NCBI GenBank assembly: GCA_902761535.1
Contig: CACWKS010000002.1
Location: 142,418-206,417 of the forward strand
Source of the DNA: an uncultured Pseudomonadota bacterium
GTDB taxonomy: Bacteria; Pseudomonadota; Alphaproteobacteria; RF32; CAG-239
Direction of reading: 5' to 3'
DNA length: 64,000 nt
A model generated the notes under the pieces. It was not told the DNA's origin. It saw only the letters and a list, made by a program, of their open reading frames with translations, and made no database searches. Position 1 is the first letter of the stretch; every line of letters begins with the position of its first letter. Position numbers and translations under genes: made by a program. Positions 23,462-62,191 of the stretch are shown piece after piece.

Positions 23462-24025
23462 TTATGCCGCAACATATTGCAATAATACCTCAATCGTTGC
23501 GGGTAATTCTTCTGCTGGTGTCGGGGTTATGTTTACCTTGGGGTTTCTTAAGATCCCCATGCGAAAACCTTTCATCGACATATAATGTCTGATTAGGCCT
23601 CGTTCTTCTTTGTTTAAGCCACACCCTTTCAGGTCAGCTTTGTTCATCATAAACAAATCCAACATCGTGGTTATATTATGATTCTTAAGATGGGAAGAGA
23701 AGGTTTCACCTATAACCCCGTTAATCGGGTACCGGCATTTTTCAGCCGTTTTCGGGGGAACAACTACCACCGACTGACCGAAATATACCGGATCATTGTC
23801 GAGGCTATAAGCTAAAACTTCTTTGGCAACATTGCGAGCCAATGTGGCTGTGTCAACATCCACATCGCCGCTAAAGAATTGCGTAGGACCCAACATATAC
23901 AAAGTATCACTGGTCCTCACAATGCCAGCCAAGGCAATTATTCGCTGTCCAGCCGGAACCGTTGCAGGCAAACCGAGCAGAAAATTTCTTATTTCCCGCT
24001 CGAAAATTTCTTGATTTTTCATCAT
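23462..24025 (-). CDS. Hypothetical protein with a C-terminal RNA polymerase alpha-CTD-like helix-hairpin-helix
   Basis: The C-terminus ADLKGCGLNKEERGLIRHYMSMKGFRMGI parallels the RpoA alpha-CTD sequence [24 protein letters not shown]. GC is moderately above the local average. Confidence 0.45.
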   Translation of the reverse strand: MMKNQEIFEREIRNFLLGLPATVPAGQRIIALAGIVRTSDTLYMLGPTQFFSGDVDVDTATLARNVAKEVLAYSLDNDPVYFGQSVVVVPPKTAEKCRYPINGVIGETFSSHLKNHNITTMLDLFMMNKADLKGCGLNKEERGLIRHYMSMKGFRMGILRNPKVNITPTPAEELPATIEVLLQYVAA

Positions 24026-24151
24026 ATTGAATTTTTTTTATTTATTAATAATTATTTATCAACCATAGAGATTATAGTATTTTGTCAATTTGTCAATAAA
24101 AAATAGCAAAAAATCCTCGCGGTCTTTATTCAAGACGGCGAGGAACAGTTC

Positions 24152-24751
24152 TCAACTTTTAATCACAACTACCAATTCAATAACACAGTCGTTGATGGGG
24201 ACATTAACTTCTGATGCAAACATTCCGAGCTTTGCCTCGTGATTTTTCAAGGCTTGCCTGATTTGTCCCAACAACTTATTGCCGATGTTGGTCAGTCGGT
24301 TCAAATTACCTTCTGAAAAACAAAGCAGTTCACCTATCTTATTGATGTTGCAGGAGTTTAACATTTTTTCTGCAATGACGGAAATATTCCTTTGGTTAAA
24401 ATCTTCTTTTTTGAGAAAATCGGCGATGTTAAGATTCAACAAATCGGAAACATTGTGGGAACATTTGACCGCATTGCAAACGAACATACAATCTCCGTTT
24501 GCTTTCTTTAGTTCGCTGATATCCAAAGCCAATTGTCCCGAAGCAGCCAAAACTGCCCCTAATGTGTTTTCACTTCGTTTGTAAACCATGTTATTGGCAA
24601 AACGACTTTTGTGAACAAGATCGGGAAAAGAAGGATTATGATGCAAAAGAATAACCCAACCTAACATTTGGTCAGATCCTACTTTAGCCTCCAAAAAACT
24701 GAAAATTCTCCGTTCCATTTGTGAAATGTCCTGAGAAACTTGAATTGTCAT
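24152..24751 (-). CDS. Hypothetical protein, paralogous to the upstream gene, with an alpha-CTD-like HhH tail
   Basis: The ORF track gives 24152..24769. The C-terminus ...GNLNRLTNIGNKLLGQIRQALKNHEAKLGM is alpha-CTD-like. Confidence 0.45.
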   Translation of the reverse strand: MTIQVSQDISQMERRIFSFLEAKVGSDQMLGWVILLHHNPSFPDLVHKSRFANNMVYKRSENTLGAVLAASGQLALDISELKKANGDCMFVCNAVKCSHNVSDLLNLNIADFLKKEDFNQRNISVIAEKMLNSCNINKIGELLCFSEGNLNRLTNIGNKLLGQIRQALKNHEAKLGMFASEVNVPINDCVIELVVVIKS

Positions 24752-24891
24752 AATAATAAAATTTATCAAATTAATAATATTAAAACGATGCTATACAAAC
24801 ACAATCTGATTTTTCTGTCAATTATAAACGCCTGATAATCACCAATTATCGGTTTAAATATTAAAACAGCAGATAATTAAATCGGCTTTTT

Positions 24892-27278: not shown

Positions 27279-27450
27279 ACTGGACAAATGAAATAAACCT
27301 TTTAATCTGTTCAGACCTGGTCGGAATTTTTTTTAAAACATAACATAATACTCATCAAATGATTAACAAAACATAAATATTTATTGCAAAATTTTATAAT
27401 GATTATATTATAAGGCAAATTATTGATAAAGCCACAGGAATTCTTTTGCA

Positions 27451-30400
27451 ATGAATAAAAATTTTTGGTTACTGTTGTTTTTTATTTTATGTTGCCCGGT
27501 ATTGACTTATGCCGGCATAAAAACGATTAATGATACGCCTTATGCCAGTGGCAATTCTGCGACGGTTTCATCCGGATCTTCCGATGATAATTCGTTATCT
27601 GCAAATTCCCCCAAGAGCCAAAATCTTCTTAATTCTTCCAATAACAGCAATGATTCGCAGTCTGATTCCCAAGCTGATGGGGACAGTGACGGAGATGGCG
27701 ATGGAAACGAAACTTATCCTGCCTGTTATTTTTCCGGTTGTGAAAATTATTCTTCTTGCCAATATTATGATATAAATAGTTTGTCTGTGGCAAGCAATTA
27801 TTGCAGTTGTGCCGCCAACAATACGAATATTGCCTTATGTGATTCGCAATTACATTATCACAGCACGGTAAATTACAGCGGCTATGCACGTGGTTTAGGG
27901 GTGAGTGCCGACAGTTCACTGACTTTAGTTTCTGGACAAAACAATTATTATTACCTTTCGAATGTAGATTATTTTTGTCCGGTTAAGTTAAATCTTGCAA
28001 CTTTGGGATATACTCTCAATCCTCTTTCCCAAACTTATTATACTGCAGCCCGTAGTCTGGATTGTGATTATGATTCATCAACCGGAGTAAATTTATTTAG
28101 TTACACAGGTATTAACTGCATTCGCCCCGGTTATGGCATCCGAGATGAACAAATAGTCAATCTTTGTATTTATGGGTGTGAAAACAATCCAAACCCTTAT
28201 GATGATATGTTAAATTATGAGAATCGCCCCAAAGGATTGCAGTTTTGTGACGCATTACGCAATCAACGAGATACATCATCTGCACGTAGTTTTTATTCAA
28301 TGGATAGTTATGATGATTTGCCCGCTGCCGCCTCAACCAAATATTATATGTATCGTCCCAATGTAGCCGCGGCTCCTGATGATTTTGATTATCAACTTGC
28401 TGAATGTGCTATCCGGTGCGGGGTGTCCGGAAATGCTGATATAACTCCTATTTGCCAAGGGTGGTATTATTTGCAAAATTGCAGTTCTTTCACTGCAGCG
28501 GAAGAAGCGGCCGGTTATTATATTTCTCCGCTATACAATTCCTATGCTGAAGCTGTTGCCGCGGCTTCACAAATTTCCTCATTTGACATTTGTTACAATT
28601 TTGATTACATATATCGCAAATCAACCTTTATTCGTTGCGGAATCAAACATAGTGCCGACGCAACCAACGGTGTTTATTCTGAAACCGAATGTCGTACCAA
28701 CAACGGCGTTTGTTCTGATACAGAAGGCGACAATTATACTTGCGGTGGCGAAACCTATTGCAAACGCTGTGTTTGTCAAAGCGGATTGTATACATTAGCC
28801 GAATGGTGTGCCGCCAATAATATCACCGAAGATTGCGATACCGAACATTATAAGGGGCAGGGGAACGGATGTAACTATGACGACACCAGCAGCGACTTGA
28901 GCGGTGTTAAATATGCCTCTTGGATATTAGATCCTGATAATCCCGATAATGTTTGTCAGCCGGAAGGGCAATATGTGGCATTAGAGGACATTTCCGCAGC
29001 GACTGTTGACGAGTTACACAACACTTATGGTCCTTCTGCCCAAATAAGCAAATGTATATCCGACAACACTATGAAATGGCAGATTACCTGCAGCAGCGAC
29101 TATGCATATATTTGCGGCATTGTTGATACTCCGAGCAATTGGTGCACCCATGGACATGATTCTTCCACCACCATGCGCAGTGAGGCGGCTTCTTCATCTC
29201 CTCACAAATATTGCACCAGCGGAACGCTCAGCGGCATTTGCGGAGAATCGATTATAATCTCAAACGGCTCGGGAAGCAGTTTAATCCCTGCCTCTTATGA
29301 TTTGAGAATTTACGAAACGGAATCGCCAGAGCAGTGTTATAACAGGTATGGACGTGCGGCCTCGGTTCAGCCCTGTATTTCTATTGATAATTACGGCTCC
29401 AAATACAATTGCTACTATGATTTGCGAGAATACATTTATTCCACAACCAATGATAACGGAGCGGTAGTCTGTCCGGTTCGCCATGATCTTACCGGAAATT
29501 ATATAGTTCTCAATGGGCAGAAGCGATGGGCGGAATGCAATTGTATGGGGCTTTACGATTACACCATTTACACATGTTCCGGCAACGCAACCGTTATGGG
29601 CAAGGCTTGCACTCAGAATTTATCAAATGTAAATTCATCAAATACGTTAATCAACAAATGGAAAGATAAAGTTCCATATGATCAGGTCAACAATCGCATT
29701 TTGGTAAATTCGGTTGACTTATATCCGTATTGCCAATGCGATGAACGCTTCAAATACACTTGTGATGATAATGAAAGAACGTCACCGCTACCTGACAGTG
29801 CTTATTGTCAAGTTGATGGACGCTATTATTATGAATCTTGTCAGTGTACCAAAGATAGCTTGCCGGATCATTGGTCGGATAATTATTTCAATTGCACTTC
29901 CGGCGCACAACCGACCGGTATCTGGAAAGAAGACGGATGCGGCGGCAAGATGTACCAGTGTTCCGATACCATAGTATGCACGTCCGAATATACTCAAACT
30001 TGCAACGGCACCGGACAAATTGGTGTCAGCGGTTATGGTTGCCAAGATGACGAGGGTGCGTATGTTAAATGGAAAAAGTGTCAGTGCGATACTGCCGGCG
30101 GATGGCATACTTGTTTAGAGGATAATCAAAGCGGTGTAGGTGATCCCTGCATTTCCGGAAATGTTAATTATTATCAGTCTTGCTCATGTCCGTCAGGTTG
30201 GGCAACTTGCGATGACGAGCATATACCGGATTCTTCGGTGCAATCATGTCAAACTGACGATGGGATAATTGTCTATGCCTCTTGCGGCTGTAATAGTAAT
30301 TACAGCGAGTGTAGCGGCAACGGACAGGTTGGAGACACCTCATCGGGCATGTGTACATTAAGCGGCGGCACTACTGTTTATGAAAATTGCATCTGCAAGA

Positions 30401-33102
30401 GTGAGTATGACAAAACCTGTCAAGCTGATTCCTCCAATCACATCCGCGGTGATGACAGCGACGTATGCACCATATCCGGTTCTTCCGGTGAAACCGAAAA
30501 TTATTACAAGAGTTGCCGGTGTGAAGATGGCTATATTTTGACCTGCAGCGCTTCAGATCATTTGGTACCGAAAGACTCGGCCGATTATTGCCAAACTGCC
30601 TCCGGTGAAACCATGTATTATAACGAGTGCGAATGTGCATCCGGATATGATAAAACTTGTGAAGGTCAAACTCCGGCGGATATTAATGATTATTGTTCGC
30701 TTAACGGTGTAAGTTATTATACGGCTTGCACCGGATGTGATGCAGCCAGCGGTTGGATTATCTGCAGCGGAGCCAATCAAATTGGTGACGGACAGACTTG
30801 CACCTTCGACGAAACCACATATTACCAGTCTTGTATATGTCCTTCCGGTTGGACGGTTTGTGACGAAGACCATCAGCCTGATTTATCGGCACAGTCTTGC
30901 CAAACCAGCAGCGGAACCACCTATTACGAAAGTTGCATTTGCAACAGCAGTTATACCGAGTGCGGCGGCAATGGTCAGGTTGGCGACACCTCATCGGGCA
31001 TGTGTGTTATTGATGATGACACCACGGTTTATGAAAGATGTATCTGCAACAGCGAGTATAATCTGACCTGTCAAGCTGATTCCGGCAATCATATCCACGG
31101 CGATGCCGATGACGTATGCTCCATATCCGGTTCTTCCGGTGAACCCGAAAATTATTACAAAACTTGCCAATGCGACGATGGCTATACTTTGAGTTGCAGT
31201 GCTTCAGAACACTTAATTCCGAAAGATGCGGCAGATTATTGTCAAATTGTTATGGATGGAGCAATCCTCTACAACGAATGTCAGTGTGCTTCCGGCTACA
31301 CTTTGACTTGCAGTGACACGGACCATTTAGCTCCGAAAGACGATAGTGATTATTGCCAAACCGCTTCAGGCGAGACCAAGTATTACAACGAGTGTGAATG
31401 TGCTTCCGGATATGACAAAACCTGTTCGGCTGCTGACGGCTTATCTCCGGTTGATAGCAGTGACTATTGCTCGCTTAACGACGTAAGTTATTACACGGCT
31501 TGTACTTGTGATACTTCCGAGGGGTGGGTTATTTGCGACAATAATCAAATCGGCAATGGACCTGTTTGCACCTCCGGCGGCACCGATTATTATCAGTCTT
31601 GCTCTTGTCCGGAAGGATGGGTTACTTGTAACGGCGACCACCAAAGCGGCAACGAACCGGCTTGTATTTCCGGCGGCACCAGCTATTATCAGTCTTGCTC
31701 TTGTCCGGCGGGGTGGGTTGCCTGCGGAACTAACCAAATCGGAAACGGAACGCCTTGCGTATTGGGCGAAACCGAGTATTACCAGTCTTGCTCTTGTCCT
31801 TCCGACTGGACAATCTGTACCGATAACAAGGTCGGCGATCCGTCGTTAGGTTCTTGCACCATTGGCGGCACCACTGTTTATGAAAATTGTATTTGCCCAT
31901 CTCACTGGATTACTTGCGAAACTAACCAAAACGGGGTAGGAGAGGTTTGCACCTCCGGAGGAATTGATTATTATTCGTCTTGTATATGCCCCATTGATTG
32001 GACGGCATGTTCCGGCAATCACATCATTGGTGATCCGTCATCCGGTGCTTGTGCCATCAACGGCTCCACTGTTTATGAAAGTTGTGCTTGCGATTCCGGC
32101 TATACCGAAAACTGCTTAAATCAAGCTCCGGTTGATGAAAATGATTATTGCTCGCTCAACGGTGTAAGTTATTATACCGCTTGCACCGATTGTGGTGATG
32201 TAGTTAAGAGGTACGATTGCGGAGAGCGCGACGCAGGTCCGATTAACTGTATTCAAAGTTATTGGGATGGAACTATACAGACAACTTACGCTTCTTGCGA
32301 TTGCTCAATACCGGAGATATATGATGGTCGTAGAAACACTGAGGCAATTATCAGAGAGACTCCCCGTGGTGAATTTGCAGCTGATGTCGCTTATCAATAT
32401 CATCCTTCAAATCTTTCTCTATTGGATAATAATTTCGGTATTGGCCGTTGGTATCTTCCTGCTTATGGAGAAATGTATCAAATGGTTAATGTTATAGATA
32501 CCGTTAATTCAGGAATTTCAGCCGTATCCGGCGAAGTGATGTATCCAGATATATCGTATTGGAGCTCATCTGAAGTCGATATGTGGTATAGTATCAAGGT
32601 TTCTAAACAAAATGTAACATATCATTATGTTGATGAACAAGAAAAAAGAATACCATGCATATTTCGCATAGTTACTCTCTTAGAAAACAAACTGCCGGCA
32701 ACTTCTTTATCTAATATTGCCGGTGCCGCCGTCGGCGATGTGGTCTATAGTGACCTGACTTATGACAGCTATACCAATCCTCATTCTGACAAAACTCCGG
32801 TCGGAGTGGTCTATTGGGTTTCCTCTGACAAATCTCGTGTGCGTATAGTTTCTCCTAATCAGCCCAAAATGCTGCCCTGGGGTTGGGGTGGATTTTATAC
32901 TTACGTGAAGCTGGAGGATGTACCCACTGAAGTAGGTGAATGGGAAATGGAAAGTCAAATGTGTTGGGACGATAATCAAAATGAATATGAGTGTTATGAG
33001 GTTGATGGTGGTATAGATATCACAGGTATTAAGAATTTAGGATCGAACATGTTTAACGACGGTATAGGTTGTACTTCTACGGAAATTCTTGACAATCTTT
33101 AG
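27451..33102 (+). CDS. Giant secreted cysteine-rich tandem-repeat protein (1883 aa) with more than 30 EGF-like 4-Cys modules and a distinct C-terminal domain
   Basis: Signal peptide MNKNFWLLLFFILCCPVLTYA. A S/N/D-rich linker including DGDSDGDGDG. About 1100 aa of repeats of the form C-x6-11-YY-x2-C-x-C-x2-G-[WY]-x2-3-C. A Cys-poor C-terminal domain of about 300 aa. Confidence 0.85.
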   Translation: MNKNFWLLLFFILCCPVLTYAGIKTINDTPYASGNSATVSSGSSDDNSLSANSPKSQNLLNSSNNSNDSQSDSQADGDSDGDGDGNETYPACYFSGCENYSSCQYYDINSLSVASNYCSCAANNTNIALCDSQLHYHSTVNYSGYARGLGVSADSSLTLVSGQNNYYYLSNVDYFCPVKLNLATLGYTLNPLSQTYYTAARSLDCDYDSSTGVNLFSYTGINCIRPGYGIRDEQIVNLCIYGCENNPNPYDDMLNYENRPKGLQFCDALRNQRDTSSARSFYSMDSYDDLPAAASTKYYMYRPNVAAAPDDFDYQLAECAIRCGVSGNADITPICQGWYYLQNCSSFTAAEEAAGYYISPLYNSYAEAVAAASQISSFDICYNFDYIYRKSTFIRCGIKHSADATNGVYSETECRTNNGVCSDTEGDNYTCGGETYCKRCVCQSGLYTLAEWCAANNITEDCDTEHYKGQGNGCNYDDTSSDLSGVKYASWILDPDNPDNVCQPEGQYVALEDISAATVDELHNTYGPSAQISKCISDNTMKWQITCSSDYAYICGIVDTPSNWCTHGHDSSTTMRSEAASSSPHKYCTSGTLSGICGESIIISNGSGSSLIPASYDLRIYETESPEQCYNRYGRAASVQPCISIDNYGSKYNCYYDLREYIYSTTNDNGAVVCPVRHDLTGNYIVLNGQKRWAECNCMGLYDYTIYTCSGNATVMGKACTQNLSNVNSSNTLINKWKDKVPYDQVNNRILVNSVDLYPYCQCDERFKYTCDDNERTSPLPDSAYCQVDGRYYYESCQCTKDSLPDHWSDNYFNCTSGAQPTGIWKEDGCGGKMYQCSDTIVCTSEYTQTCNGTGQIGVSGYGCQDDEGAYVKWKKCQCDTAGGWHTCLEDNQSGVGDPCISGNVNYYQSCSCPSGWATCDDEHIPDSSVQSCQTDDGIIVYASCGCNSNYSECSGNGQVGDTSSGMCTLSGGTTVYENCICKSEYDKTCQADSSNHIRGDDSDVCTISGSSGETENYYKSCRCEDGYILTCSASDHLVPKDSADYCQTASGETMYYNECECASGYDKTCEGQTPADINDYCSLNGVSYYTACTGCDAASGWIICSGANQIGDGQTCTFDETTYYQSCICPSGWTVCDEDHQPDLSAQSCQTSSGTTYYESCICNSSYTECGGNGQVGDTSSGMCVIDDDTTVYERCICNSEYNLTCQADSGNHIHGDADDVCSISGSSGEPENYYKTCQCDDGYTLSCSASEHLIPKDAADYCQIVMDGAILYNECQCASGYTLTCSDTDHLAPKDDSDYCQTASGETKYYNECECASGYDKTCSAADGLSPVDSSDYCSLNDVSYYTACTCDTSEGWVICDNNQIGNGPVCTSGGTDYYQSCSCPEGWVTCNGDHQSGNEPACISGGTSYYQSCSCPAGWVACGTNQIGNGTPCVLGETEYYQSCSCPSDWTICTDNKVGDPSLGSCTIGGTTVYENCICPSHWITCETNQNGVGEVCTSGGIDYYSSCICPIDWTACSGNHIIGDPSSGACAINGSTVYESCACDSGYTENCLNQAPVDENDYCSLNGVSYYTACTDCGDVVKRYDCGERDAGPINCIQSYWDGTIQTTYASCDCSIPEIYDGRRNTEAIIRETPRGEFAADVAYQYHPSNLSLLDNNFGIGRWYLPAYGEMYQMVNVIDTVNSGISAVSGEVMYPDISYWSSSEVDMWYSIKVSKQNVTYHYVDEQEKRIPCIFRIVTLLENKLPATSLSNIAGAAVGDVVYSDLTYDSYTNPHSDKTPVGVVYWVSSDKSRVRIVSPNQPKMLPWGWGGFYTYVKLEDVPTEVGEWEMESQMCWDDNQNEYECYEVDGGIDITGIKNLGSNMFNDGIGCTSTEILDNL

Positions 33103-33129
33103 TTAATGCCCTCTGCCCAAATTATTAAC

Positions 33130-34410
33130 CTGTCATGCCTGAGCAACTGAAAGTTGCGAATAAGGCATCTTCGAAAAAAAAACTGTCATGCCTCAATCGG
33201 CGAAAACAAAACGACCAAACCTGTCATGCCTCAATCGGCGCCAGTCCGATTGATAAGGCATCTTCGAATTTTTTAAAAATTCGTAGCCCCCTTATTCGCC
33301 TCATTTTATTCGGCTCAGGGGTGACATTTAAAAAAACTGTCATGCCTGAGCGGTTGCAAACCGCGAATAAGGCATCTTCGAAAAAAAAACTGTCATGCCT
33401 CAATCGGCGAAAACAAAACAAGTAAGGGGATAAGAGGGGATAAAATACTTCCTTTTTTGCTTTATTAAAAAAAATAATTCGAAGATGCCTTACTCCACTC
33501 ACTTCGTTCGTTTCGGGCATGACATTTTATATTTAAACTGTCATGCCTGAGCGGTTGCAAACCGCGAATAAGGCATCTTCGAATTTTCTCTTGTAAAAAC
33601 CTATTTTATGAAATATAATCAACTTTATGAAAGAAATGTATGTTTATATAATGACCAATAAAAATAATACCACATTATATATCGGTGTTACGTCTGATTT
33701 AGTCCGTCGGGTTTATGAACATAAAAACGGCATTTTTAAGGGCTTTACTTCTGAATATAATTTAAATAAGTTGGTGTACTATGAAATAATTGATGGTGAA
33801 ACTCAAGCCATTGAACGAGAAAAACAACTTAAAAAATTTTATAAAGATTATAAGAAACGTCTTATTACAGAAAAGAATCCTTCATGGCAAGACTTATATT
33901 CTGAAATTTGCAGTGAGTAGTAAAAATAATTCGAAGATGCCTAACTCCGAAATATAACTTGTCACCCCTGAGCAACTGAAAGTTGCGAATAAGGGGTCTA
34001 CGAATTTGCCCTTCCCCTTGCAAGCAAGGGGATAAGAGGGGATAAAATACTTCCTTATTTTTACTTTATTAAAAAATAATTCGAAGATGCCTAACTCCGT
34101 TCGCTAACGCTCACTACGGGCATGACATTAATATTTTTTCTCAGGGTTTGGGATTTATGAGTAAAGCGGAAAAAGCAAATATTAAATCGGCTGGCAGTAT
34201 TTCTTTATGCGGCTTACGTCGCGCGCTTTAGTGTGTAAGTTAAGCCGCAGCCTTATGCCGTTTTAATATTTGCCCGCTTTGCGAATATCCCAATGACTTT
34301 TGGTTACTTTTTGTTGCCAAAAAGTAACGCAAATATAAATATAAAAATAAAAATAATTCGAAGATGCCTTACTCCGTTCGCTCCGCTCTCTTAAGGGCAT
34401 GACATTAATA
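33130..34410. repeat. Dense cluster of at least 12 copies, in both orientations, of a 45-60-bp hairpin element family. The core is tgtcATGCC-[internal hairpin]-aataaGGCATcttcgaa, with variants.
   Basis: Copies sit at about 33130-33175, 33184-33214 (partial), 33221-33268, 33278-33328 (reverse variant), 33337-33382, 33389-33420 (partial), 33479-33526 (reverse), 33538-33584, 33925-33950 (reverse, partial), 33957-34003 (CCCC/GGGG variant), 34062-34133 (reverse) and 34340-34405 (reverse). Auxiliary motif aaggggataagaggggataaaatacttcc occurs twice. Confidence 0.85.
33627..33920 (+). CDS. GIY-YIG (URI-domain) nuclease family protein, COG2827-type small endonuclease
   Basis: YVYIMTNKNNTTLYIGVTSDLVRRVYEHKNG matches the GIY-x10-YIG signature, including the conserved R and the E of EHK. 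The likely start is the MYVYIM Met at about 33636. Confidence 0.75.
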   Translation: MKEMYVYIMTNKNNTTLYIGVTSDLVRRVYEHKNGIFKGFTSEYNLNKLVYYEIIDGETQAIEREKQLKKFYKDYKKRLITEKNPSWQDLYSEICSE

Positions 34411-34444
34411 TTTAACCTGTCCTTCCCAAAAACAAAAATAAAAC

Positions 34445-36356: not shown

Positions 36357-37475
36357 TTAAAAATTATAAAAATCACTACTGACAAAACGCCGGTCTTCTT
36401 GAACCATCTTGTCATAATCTAATTCAATAAACATCGGATCTACCAATTCTAATTTTCCGGTAGTAGCTGTCAGATAAGGTTTATTACCGCCTAATCCCCA
36501 GGTAACCGTATTCTTATCATCGGGAACTCCGTACTTTCTGTTTATTTTTTTCCAAAAATCATATATTTTCAGATTGCGCAGATACGTAGCTTTGGGTGAA
36601 TTTCCGTTTATCGCTACAATATTCGAAGTATAATAAATTTTATGAACCCTGTTACCGGTAAAATTACTGGTAAAATAAACTTCAATTTCTTCTTTGGTTT
36701 CAAACTTGGCGAATTTTATATATTCTACATATTCAAAACCTTCCTTTTTAGCTTTCTTTAATACGCAAGCCTGCAACCTTTCATATCCGACAATTCCCGA
36801 GTTGCGACAAATTTCTTCGTTTCTCCATTTAATAAAATTCGGAACTTGATACCGAGCATTAATTTTTTTGAAACCATGCGTTAACAAAACATCTTCCGCT
36901 TGAGATACATTCATTCTCAACATAACTCCTGCAATATCAAAAATTGCCGCATTAGAGCGATTGTTTTTGGCATTTTTGCGAGAAATATTCATCATATTAT
37001 CAATATCGGCATCTTCTTCGGAAACTTCTGCTTCTTTATTATCAGATGATACTTTAGGGCTGTCATTGTCACCGCTCAACAATTTGCTGGGTGACAACTC
37101 GCTTATTTTTTCAATCCAGGTTCCGTCCAGAATGCTTTCGTTTTTATTTTTAGGATCACTTTGTAATCTCTCGGTAAGACTGTCTCCCTGAGGCGTGGTT
37201 GGTGATTTTTGCAGATCATCGCTAGCAATTTGATCTAAGCTTTTAATTGCAGGCCGCTCGGGAATAAACAGAGTTTCATTATCCTGAGTTGTTTCTTCGG
37301 CAGAAGGATTATCTATGCCGGAGGAAGATGGCACCTCATCTTTTGTTTCATTTTTGGGGTTATCCCAATCGGATATTTCATAATCGATTGCATCATCGTA
37401 AGCCTCACCGTCCTCACTGGCAAAAGCCGGTGAGACTAATAATAATGCTGTAATTAATATTTGTACCGTTTTCAT
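36357..37475 (-). CDS. Secreted hypothetical protein with an acidic low-complexity N-terminal region
   Basis: Signal peptide MKTVQILITALLLVSPAFA. The first 180 aa are D/E/S-rich, followed by a globular C-terminal domain with no recognised motif. Confidence 0.5.
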   Translation of the reverse strand: MKTVQILITALLLVSPAFASEDGEAYDDAIDYEISDWDNPKNETKDEVPSSSGIDNPSAEETTQDNETLFIPERPAIKSLDQIASDDLQKSPTTPQGDSLTERLQSDPKNKNESILDGTWIEKISELSPSKLLSGDNDSPKVSSDNKEAEVSEEDADIDNMMNISRKNAKNNRSNAAIFDIAGVMLRMNVSQAEDVLLTHGFKKINARYQVPNFIKWRNEEICRNSGIVGYERLQACVLKKAKKEGFEYVEYIKFAKFETKEEIEVYFTSNFTGNRVHKIYYTSNIVAINGNSPKATYLRNLKIYDFWKKINRKYGVPDDKNTVTWGLGGNKPYLTATTGKLELVDPMFIELDYDKMVQEDRRFVSSDFYNF

Positions 37476-61195: not shown

Positions 61196-61558
61196 TATTT
61201 ACTTGCTTGTTTTATTGTAAAAACACAATTAACACACAGAATAAAGCTAGTCAATTTGATATTTTAATATTATTGTAATAATACAATATATGCATTCAAT
61301 TATTACCGCCAATATTGAGAATATCTTAAATCCCTTGAATAATACCTTAAATCAAGGTATGCAGTATGCTCAAAATACTTTAATCAATGTAAAAAACGAT
61401 GCCGTACAATTACCTTAGCGAAGGAGCCGGTGCTGTAAATAATTATCTTAATAATCTTGTAAAAAATCAAAATGGACGATACTATATCAATTACGATGGA
61501 ATATCCGATAATAGATTATCGGATATGTTTAAACGGATTGAAACAAGGTTGCGTAATT

Positions 61559-62191
61559 TTGAAAAATAAACTTTTTTTAATATTGTTTACAGTCTTTTCT
61601 TGCGGTAAAGTTTACGCTTTGCCGCAAGATTGGCCATGTAAGGATTTTGTGCTTAATGAGTACCAAAGAATAGAAAATGGTGAGTTTACCATAAATAGCA
61701 TATACCGCGGGCAAGATAATGACTATGCTTTGGAAGTAAATATGTATTGGCAAGCGGAAAAGGGAATTGCCGATTGTGGAACATCCGGTTGTTTAGGAAC
61801 GATTAAAAATACCAAAACCGGAAAAGTGGAAAGTTTAAGGTTCTTTTGCGAAATTTTAGAAGATAAAAAATATGACAAAGCTAAGTGTTATATCGGCGGT
61901 ATTTATGAATATATTTTTAATTCGGATGAAAAAGGAAATTATATTGTTCATTATTGTCCGGATGATATGCAAAAAACTTTGCGCTTTAATAAAAGCAATT
62001 GCGATAAATGCCATTGTACAATGTATAAGTATGATAGAAAGATAAAGGATAAAAACAGTCATTATGAAATGGCTTGTAAAAAAGAGGAAAACAAAGCACA
62101 TTGTTTTAATTATTACGAATATGAAGTTTGGCGTAATTTTGAAAATGCTGATAATGACTATCAAAATTGTGTAGGACTAGATTTTTATTAG
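61559..62191 (+). CDS. Secreted cysteine-rich hypothetical protein
   Basis: The ORF track starts at 61472; the likely start is a TTG at about 61559, giving signal peptide LKNKLFLILFTVFSCGKVYA. The mature part has 14 Cys, including CDKCHC. Confidence 0.5.
   Translation: MKNKLFLILFTVFSCGKVYALPQDWPCKDFVLNEYQRIENGEFTINSIYRGQDNDYALEVNMYWQAEKGIADCGTSGCLGTIKNTKTGKVESLRFFCEILEDKKYDKAKCYIGGIYEYIFNSDEKGNYIVHYCPDDMQKTLRFNKSNCDKCHCTMYKYDRKIKDKNSHYEMACKKEENKAHCFNYYEYEVWRNFENADNDYQNCVGLDFY

Follow-up and report, generated by a model that had tools for sequence, protein, structure and literature searches.

Background

The adhesin Lcl, a surface protein of Legionella, is built like a 'lollipop', in which a collagen stalk carries a C-type-lectin-like head that contains DUF1566 and binds sulfated glycosaminoglycans (PMC11162425). 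Here we describe a gene for an exported protein of 1883 aa that may have a comparable layout, with a long array of cysteine-rich repeats followed by a putative binding domain. The gene, called the giant gene below, lies at positions 27451 to 33102 of the plus strand of a 64,000-nucleotide stretch of DNA, referred to throughout as the window, from an uncultured Pseudomonadota bacterium (GTDB lineage Alphaproteobacteria; RF32; CAG-239; GenBank assembly GCA_902761535.1, contig CACWKS010000002.1, positions 142,418 to 206,417 of the forward strand).

Other described systems that invite comparison are the epidermal growth factor (EGF) arrays of Notch, fibrillin, and Jagged, the cysteine-rich domains of the tumor necrosis factor (TNF) receptors, the RTX, Bap, SiiE, and autotransporter adhesins, and the variant-specific surface proteins (VSPs) of Giardia. 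The last of these are membrane-anchored eukaryotic proteins that belong to large switching gene families. Giant exported binding proteins made of repeats are, as a kind, familiar. What is new to Pfam, NCBIfam, and the PDB in the protein described here is its repeat module, its 300-aa core, and its N-terminal region, and no description of the protein family was found in the literature on this family and its clade.

No member of this lineage of gut and rumen Alphaproteobacteria is in culture, and hardly anything is known of how these bacteria interact with their surroundings. An earlier note, made from the DNA alone, had read the product of the giant gene as a eukaryote-like adhesin or effector of the kind found in intracellular symbionts, made of truncated EGF-like modules. 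Is this protein related to the EGF proteins of eukaryotes? Or, is it a product of the bacterial lineage itself, with a likeness to EGF that is short and local? The reading that we prefer, with a probability of roughly 0.5, is that a free-living gut bacterium uses it, at the surface or outside the cell, as a binding protein with a stalk and a head.

Results

The giant gene and its array of four-cysteine modules

Both the extent of the giant gene, an ATG-initiated frame of 1883 aa, and its rank as the longest open frame within the window agree with the earlier note. Other metagenome contigs encode the identical 1883-aa protein. Cysteine makes up 7.8% of its residues (146 in all) versus 1.7% in the other long open reading frames (ORFs) of the window, and reaches 11.5% within the array. 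A scan of the full protein against Pfam and NCBIfam gave no match, and a PDB sequence search with the full length found nothing relevant. The features of the gene and its product are the following.

27451–33102 (+): complete gene for the cysteine-rich exported protein of 1883 aa, with an ATG start and the stop codon at 33100–33102
30037–32220 (+): 21 tandem four-cysteine modules, predicted beta-hairpins, aa 863–1590, in units of 31–42 aa with linkers of 10–15 aa that carry a Q-[IV]-G motif
30116–31417 (+): two tandem 651-nt blocks (217 aa, six modules each), marked by the DNA repeat families D1, D2, D3, D5, and D8, all with a spacing of 651
32248–32304 (+): terminal partial module CIQSYWDGTIQTTYASCDC, aa 1600–1618, lacking the fourth cysteine, read from the sequence
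32323–32685 (+): putative divergent DUF1566/Lcl_C-like domain, aa ~1625–1745, with NTEAI, AAxxAxxY, GxGRWYLPAxGEM, YWSSSE, and IFRIV
32722–32886 (+): beta-rich sub-domain, aa 1758–1812, 'VGDVVYSD...TPVGVVYWVS...RVRIVS'
32887–33099 (+): C-terminal tail, aa 1813–1883, with 3 cysteines, for which no relatives were found
27363–27450 (+): AT-rich upstream region with sigma-70-like hexamers (27363–27411) and AGGA as a putative ribosome-binding site (27436–27439), which are consensus matches only
27451–27513 (+): Sec-type signal peptide, aa 1–21, MNKNFWLLLFFILCCPVLTYA before G, with the n-region MNKN, the hydrophobic core FWLLLFFILCCPVLT, and predicted cleavage between TYA and G, read from the sequence
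27514–27543 (+): mature N-terminus GIKTINDTPY, aa 22–31, with the family motif [AG]-[VI]-x-x-[IL]-x-[DE]-T-x-[FY]
27544–27720 (+): cysteine-free Ser/Asn/Asp/Gly-rich low-complexity spacer, to aa 90, assigned by composition
27721–29127 (+): N-terminal Cys/Tyr-rich region, aa 91–559, conserved among the close orthologues alone, with variant modules at aa 103–130 and 421–453
29128–30036 (+): family-defining core of ~300 aa, aa 560–862, with VRHDL..GQKRW, LYPYCxC, PTGxWK..GCGxKxYxC, and 21 invariant cysteines

The 21 canonical modules (aa 864–1590) hold 84 cysteines and follow the pattern C-x10-15-C-x1-2-C-x6-8-C, the cysteines of which are called C1 to C4 below. An aromatic residue stands three positions before C2, and C3 is usually followed by G, S, or D and then W or Y. 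The strict regular expression [YFW]-x2-C-x-C-x2-5-[YWF]-x1-4-C matches the protein 21 times versus 0.06 times (maximum 2) in 2000 shuffles, and a loose one 23 times versus 4.0 +/- 1.7 (maximum 11) in 2000 shuffles, so that the array lies far beyond what chance would give. A hidden Markov model (HMM) of the module scores 573 bits on the window ORF and finds 23 modules. Upstream of the array there are about five degenerate or variant modules (aa 103–130, 421–453, 674–709, 720–771, and 786–815). Where the earlier note had counted more than 30 modules over about 1100 aa, there are thus 21 canonical modules, about five degenerate ones, and one partial; the tidy array covers ~730 aa, or ~950 aa when the degenerate modules are included. 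The remainder of its sequence description was found as stated. The array is very acidic, with 14.4% D+E and 2.6% K+R.

The two 651-nt blocks are 70–81% identical in DNA, and this duplication of six modules indicates that the array grew by block duplication. Tandem Repeats Finder reported no DNA tandem repeat in the gene, the 651-nt period being longer than its 500-nt limit.

An AlphaFold2 model of four consecutive modules (aa 1363–1489), built on 70 aligned rows, each a window of four modules from a member of the family, has a predicted template modeling score (pTM) of 0.72 and a mean predicted local distance difference test (pLDDT) of 93.8, which is possibly inflated by overlapping windows of the same proteins in the alignment. 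Each module forms one beta-hairpin in the model, and the modules are joined into an extended chain. Foldseek found no significant match for it in the PDB (best E 0.92, TM-score at most 0.26), and neither AlphaFold2 nor Foldseek performs strongly on elongated proteins made of 30-aa modules. DSSP places the hairpin turn two residues after C1, so that C1 would face the conserved Tyr and not C2; as far as strand assignment goes, this argues against a simple C1–C2 staple. Across the family the spacing between C2 and C3 is 1, 2, or 5–6 residues, and arrays terminate right after C2, as in '...CITSSGTTFYSEC'. Taken together, the strand assignment, the C2–C3 spacing, and the array ends suggest C3-C4-linker-C1-C2 as a possible phasing of the structural unit.

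The C-terminal region

Jackhmmer ties aa 1591–1883 to the Lcl_C regions of two relatives, P0033 and P0022, which pass the PF07603 gathering score with 72 bits and 42.5 bits. Three others score 28–31 bits on Lcl_C; for the orthologue P0002 the score is 28 bits. The DUF1566 motifs sought were G.G.W[YF]LP..E[LM], YWSS.E, and a terminal VR.V. In the alignment of this region (A7), 6 of the 15 members match PF07603 and the window protein shows NTEAI, AAxxAxxY, GIGRWYLPAYGEM, YWSSSE, and IFRIV. In the PDB, the A7 profile matches 4eps_A (E 4.8e-6); its match to 8q4e_A, the C-terminal domain of Lcl, reaches only E 0.59. A word-index search with the C-terminal domain gave one match. By transitive homology the region is thus predicted to be a divergent DUF1566-like domain, and not a Pfam-level member.

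Among the close orthologues, the window protein and P0002 alone were seen to have this domain. The beta-rich sub-domain accompanies Lcl_C-like cores in relatives as well, being repeated in P0017 and placed before the core in P0033, P0037, and P0020. The C-terminal tail is not kept even in P0002, which is 57% identical.

Signal peptide, N-terminal motif, and core

The signal peptide and the Ser/Asn/Asp-rich spacer that the earlier note described are both borne out. The signal peptide has the layout expected for signal peptidase I, with a basic n-region, a hydrophobic core of 10–15 residues, and small residues at -3 and -1. The AxA-type cleavage site is kept in all orthologues, and more than 30 giant relatives have an equal layout. 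Two cysteines lie inside the signal peptide and are not conserved, being absent from the orthologues P0004, P0005, and P0007. A lipoprotein was considered and rejected: the sequence F-I-L-C-C-P does not fit the canonical lipobox [LVI][ASTVI][GAS]C and has no small residue at -1, and the signal-peptide cysteines are not conserved while the cleavage site is.

The motif that directly follows cleavage is present in nearly all giant relatives (L007 to L035) and in several small module proteins (P0016, P0017, P0045–P0047, P0051, P0054, and P0055); examples are GIKTINDTPY, AVVPIVDTKA, and AVVSINETQF. It may act in sorting or anchoring, or as a donor strand. In another group among the small module proteins, a shared '..QYTHLI.TNQSQI.EP..' takes the place of the motif. 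The spacer (aa 23–90) has no cysteine and consists of S, N, D, G, and T to 69%.

About 770 aa of lineage-specific cysteine-rich sequence precede the array and end with the 300-aa core. The first part, aa 91–559, has 71 invariant columns in an alignment of 6 sequences and has no relative in Pfam or the PDB, including by a search of the PDB with the N-terminal profile. The core is common to all giant relatives by alignment, and its HMM scores 345 bits on the window ORF. An AlphaFold2 model of it from 16 sequences has a pLDDT of 66.5, with only residues ~35–205 confident (70–92). The core has no match in the PDB, either by fold (Foldseek on the model gave noise only) or by sequence profile.

Resemblance to EGF

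The likeness to the EGF signature on which the earlier note had relied is real within CxCxxG[YW], and it ends there. In an hhalign comparison with a hand-typed EGF alignment, the modules align over 9 columns (C-x-C-x2-G-Y) at 51% probability. No EGF-type family is found at E <= 1 when the full protein is searched against Pfam and NCBIfam. When 61 modules were searched singly against Pfam, 8 gave sub-threshold EGF-type matches (E 0.02–0.16) and 3 gave weak matches to Zn_ribbon_CSL (best E 0.0034, below threshold). A profile of the 61 modules brought up nothing of relevance among 177,635 distinct PDB chain sequences, and no EGF-containing chain even at E <= 10. The PROSITE-type EGF patterns, PS00022 and PS01186 (C-x-C-x5-G-x2-C and C-x-C-x2-[GP]-[FYW]-x4-8-C), have 0 matches in the 1883 aa, and the loop of 1–4 residues after the aromatic residue is too short for them. 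All 21 modules have four cysteines per unit versus the six of EGF. The Foldseek list is headed, without significance, by TNF-receptor and Notch-ligand cysteine-rich arrays. The resemblance to EGF is a short local motif, without detectable homology or shared fold. Nor was the module assigned to any known bacterial repeat family; it was such an assignment that the earlier note had said would count against its reading.

Relatives and their distribution

A word-index search with the full protein found four homologues of 57–32% identity, one of them named 'MAG: Alphaproteobacteria bacterium', and a search with the module alignment gave 4 candidates. The HMMER module profile, run against 1.84 billion representative proteins, found 59 proteins at E <= 1e-3. 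Almost all of these start with a signal peptide, and every one with a name is a hypothetical protein from a metagenome-assembled genome (MAG) of an uncultured gut or rumen alphaproteobacterium; none of the relatives whose database names were checked is functionally annotated. They form two groups. The giants have 1200–2700 aa and 15–25 modules. The smaller proteins have 300–1100 aa and at least 3 modules followed by variable C-terminal domains, and in P0017, P0020, P0022, P0033, P0037, and P0051 these are Lcl_C-like.

A scan for the core in one genome per GTDB species gave 34 loci, all from uncultured (alpha)proteobacterial MAGs. Their sources include the rumen, roe deer, humans (Hadza and others), and 'Proteobacteria bacterium CAG:495'. 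We take these relatives, CAG:495 included, to belong to the GTDB lineage RF32. The core-bearing ORFs have 939–2710 aa with 6.6–9.5% cysteine, and the shortest ones end at contig ends.

Some relatives have features of their own. The metagenomic protein P0042 (788 aa) has four-cysteine modules fused to an ALK/LTK glycine-rich domain (PF12810, 95.5 bits, E 6.5e-27), of a family best known from animal receptor tyrosine kinases. Directly after the gene for the giant relative P0015, a convergent cluster at L037 8565–12189 encodes a GtrA-like protein, YdjC, a family-2 glycosyltransferase, and a PMT_2 mannosyltransferase-like protein. Given this cluster, glycosylation of some giant-family members is a possibility; no cluster of this type adjoins the window gene. 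Within the window, an ORF of 239 aa at 61472–62191 (+) has 6.3% cysteine and a hydrophobic N-terminal segment. It is unrelated to the giant family, since neither the module HMM nor the core HMM matches it.

Synteny and evolution of the locus

Intact orthologues of the giant gene are present in syntenic position. In L003, L004, and L005 the gene order is lepA, GNAT, zero to two small ORFs, the giant gene, cheR, cheY, chpT, p372, and trmFO. The genes of more distant giants are found in other, unrelated surroundings, and no partner gene recurs beside them. LepA is 97–98% identical between the window and the syntenic relatives versus at most 57% overall for the giant protein. In comparison with L003, the nonsynonymous divergence (dN) is 0.012 for LepA, 0.034 for GNAT, 0.069 for CheR, 0.084 for CheY, 0.139 for ChpT, and 0.29 for the giant gene, which is the fastest-evolving gene of its neighborhood. 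Within the giant gene, the ratio of nonsynonymous to synonymous divergence (omega) against the same locus is 0.054 in the core, 0.24 in aa 91–559, 0.33 in the C-terminal region, and 0.65 in the spacer, which with a dN of 0.81 is the fastest-evolving segment; the synonymous divergence (dS) of the array is saturated. The core is under strong purifying selection. Module number varies as well, from 21 in the window to 19 in L003/P0002, 15 in P0003, and ~10 in P0004. The gene has been maintained intact; its core is constrained and its exposed parts change rapidly. Its absence or decay in close relatives, which the earlier note had named as grounds for doubt, is thus not what is seen.

The neighborhood in the window encodes an Rnf complex, an outer-membrane protein (OMP) beta-barrel, CheR and CheY, and a ChpT-type phosphotransferase. 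Because these are encoded nearby, the evidence points to a free-living chemotactic diderm anaerobe. This, together with the origin of the relatives in rumen and gut-lumen MAGs, speaks against the intracellular symbiont that had been proposed.

Several further observations concern the surroundings of the gene. Its G+C content (window 28001–32000) is 0.43–0.475 versus ~0.36–0.40 in the flanks. Since the gene is syntenic and vertically inherited, its Gly/Cys/Ala/Ser/Thr/Asp-rich composition is a more likely cause of this than recent transfer. The repeat and nuclease cluster that had been reported directly after the gene is present. The 1.34-kb interval from the stop of the giant gene to the convergent stop of cheR (33103–34444) holds four repeat copies of ~86 nt, five of ~43 nt, and a GIY-YIG ORF of 97 aa (33627–33920, Pfam 64.6 bits). 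At the same position there are only 53 bp in L003 and 32 bp in L004, which makes the cluster a lineage-specific insertion; it is probably a small mobile element with repeats that resemble miniature inverted-repeat transposable elements (MITEs). Upstream of lepA (23462–24769, minus strand) lie ORFs of 187 and 205 aa with weak helix-hairpin-helix-type matches below or near threshold (SAM_EPH 23.3 bits, RNA_pol_A_CTD 23.3 bits) and only distant counterparts in L003 and L005 (28–65% identity). A syntenic ORF of 372 aa at 36357–37475 (minus strand) has a signal peptide, an acidic low-complexity N-terminal half, and only weak matches to Endopep_inhib and DUF1132; it is 73% identical in L003 and 51–52% in L004 and L005.

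Discussion

A proposed stalk-and-head binding protein

If the product of the giant gene is a stalk-and-head binding protein, its function could be pictured as follows. The Sec pathway would export a giant, acidic, cysteine-rich protein, the mature form of which has 144 cysteines that would be oxidized to disulfides. These would staple the 21 hairpins into a stiff, protease-resistant, acidic rod, and the rod would act as a spacer that keeps a lectin-like binding domain away from the cell. The domain may then attach the protein to feed particles, mucus, or other microbes by way of a carbohydrate-type ligand, while the conserved N-terminal part would retain the protein on the cell or perform the common function of the family. 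A spacer-plus-head design is supported by the small secreted proteins, in many of which these modules likewise precede an Lcl_C-like domain. Of the adhesin or effector that the earlier note proposed, an exported, repetitive, and plausibly ligand-binding protein is retained on the evidence of the signal peptide, the stalk, and the DUF1566/Lcl_C-like end; its eukaryote-like EGF character is not.

Several points weigh against this reading. In a diderm a Sec signal delivers a protein only to the periplasm, and no linked secretion, anchoring, chaperone, or Dsb gene was found in the window or in the loci of the relatives. The disulfides are assumed, and the rumen is strongly reducing. The confidence of the module model may be overstated, for the reason given above. 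Neither the window protein nor its C-terminal 267 aa has a Pfam match, and both fall below the PF07603 gathering threshold of 34.9 bits. The orthologues in L004, L005, and P0003 are entirely without the Lcl_C-like domain. Since the head is missing in some orthologues, the conserved function must reside in the N-terminal 860 aa.

Other readings of the protein

A protective or structural envelope protein, that is, a protease-resistant coat or scaffold with exposed parts that diverge under pressure from phages or immunity, is a doubtful alternative; in principle such a protein would be comparable to the cysteine-rich VSPs of the gut protist Giardia. In its favor, a core-bearing giant copy is present in each of the 34 species genomes recovered, the core is strongly constrained, in contrast to the fast divergence of spacer, array, and C-terminus, the binding-type domain is dispensable in orthologues, the conserved N-terminal motif could serve in anchoring, and the array is very acidic with 11.5% cysteine. 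However, abundance, self-assembly, and surface location are conjectural for such a coat, the window has a single copy with no variant gene cassettes, and the modules of the many small lectin-headed proteins fit a spacer role better. Could the four cysteines of each module instead bind Zn or Fe, as a string of metal-stabilized knuckles suited to an anaerobic, reducing habitat? Four invariant cysteines per ~33-aa unit, the weak Zn_ribbon_CSL matches of 3 of the 61 modules (best E 0.0034), and a rumen or gut origin that makes extracellular oxidation uncertain would agree with this. We think it unlikely, as the spacing C-x10-C-x-C-x6-C does not provide the paired CxxC knuckles found in zinc ribbons, the matches in Pfam are below threshold, a protein with a Sec signal is exported unfolded, and a C2–C3 spacing of 1, 2, or 5–6 aa is hard to square with a fixed tetrahedral site; many exported cysteine-rich repeats are disulfide-bonded. 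A metallothionein-like protein was also considered and rejected.

The EGF-repeat adhesin or effector of an intracellular symbiont, acquired from a host or mimicking one, is very improbable and largely refuted. It draws on the 9 profile columns over which CxCxxG[YW] aligns with C4-x-C5 of EGF, on the sub-threshold EGF-type matches of 8 of the 61 modules, and on the TNF-receptor and Notch-ligand arrays that head the non-significant Foldseek list. Against these stand the lack of a significant match to any EGF model or of an EGF chain in the PDB at E 10, the 0 PROSITE-type matches, four cysteines rather than six with a shorter C3–C4 loop, and a strand assignment that would place C1 opposite Tyr and not, as in EGF, opposite C2. 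In addition, every named homologue is bacterial and of one clade with vertical synteny, and the organism looks free-living and chemotactic. Many near-identical small cysteine-rich tandem units behind a signal peptide might also suggest a polyprotein precursor that is cleaved into bacteriocin-like or signaling peptides, but here the odds are the poorest of all: the linkers have no conserved cleavage motif, with Q-[IV]-G inside the first hairpin strand of the model, the pTM of 0.72 indicates fixed packing between modules, large conserved non-repeat regions flank the array, and no protease or transporter genes are linked. An autotransporter or two-partner (type V) adhesin and an RTX (type I) adhesin were rejected, as no such Pfam or NCBIfam domains and no partner genes in the neighborhood were found.

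A possible family of giant extracellular proteins

More tentatively, the module may be a new disulfide-stapled hairpin fold, unmatched in the PDB, that, with the core, defines a lineage-specific giant extracellular family with about one member per genome in uncultured Alphaproteobacteria of gut and rumen, the N-terminal motif being its surface-sorting or anchoring signal. Were this so, the C3-C4-linker-C1-C2 phasing may mean that disulfides bridge adjacent modules and give a covalently laced rod. As it stands, the protein family is clean and well delimited, with a confidently predicted module structure, and holds no strong mechanistic surprise. The giant family is the lineage's largest, most cysteine-rich, and fastest-diverging exported product. 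Its compact, confidently predictable module of ~33 aa could enter domain databases and might serve as a scaffold in the engineering of disulfide-rich proteins, and the giant family would mark this clade in metagenomes. If the protein is indeed located at the surface, it is an obvious candidate for studies of attachment, phage receptors, and immune recognition.

Comparison with known systems

Like Lcl and other PF07603 proteins, the window protein is exported and combines an elongated repeat stalk with a putative C-terminal DUF1566-type domain. Where Lcl has a collagen triple helix, the window protein has an array of four-cysteine hairpins for a stalk, with no sign that it forms a trimer. Its domain has diverged too far for Pfam to recognize it and matches the Lcl C-terminal domain only at E 0.59, some orthologues do without it, and there is a large extra N-terminal region.

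With TNF-receptor cysteine-rich domains it shares an elongated chain of small disulfide-type modules, and the best Foldseek match is of this kind (7p3i_C, E 0.92); that match is non-significant (TM-score 0.16) and there is no sequence relationship. Its likeness to the VSPs of Giardia is only an analogy, in that both are repetitive extracellular proteins with ~11–12% cysteine from a protease-rich gut habitat; unlike the VSPs, the window protein has no CXXC motif and no homology to them.

Compared with the RTX, Bap, SiiE, and autotransporter adhesins, it has no Ig-like, cadherin-like, RTX, or beta-barrel domains, its signal is an N-terminal Sec signal and not the C-terminal signal of type I secretion, and its modules have 31–42 aa and not the ~100 aa of Ig-like ones. 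It is like these adhesins in being very large, acidic, repeat-rich, and exported, with a variable repeat number and a terminal domain that may bind. With the EGF arrays of Notch, fibrillin, and Jagged it has in common small tandem cysteine-rich modules based on hairpins and the motif aromatic-x-C-x-C-x2-G-[YW]. The tandem units, the Q-[IV]-G linker, and the core that define the four-cysteine hairpin family are all present in the window protein.

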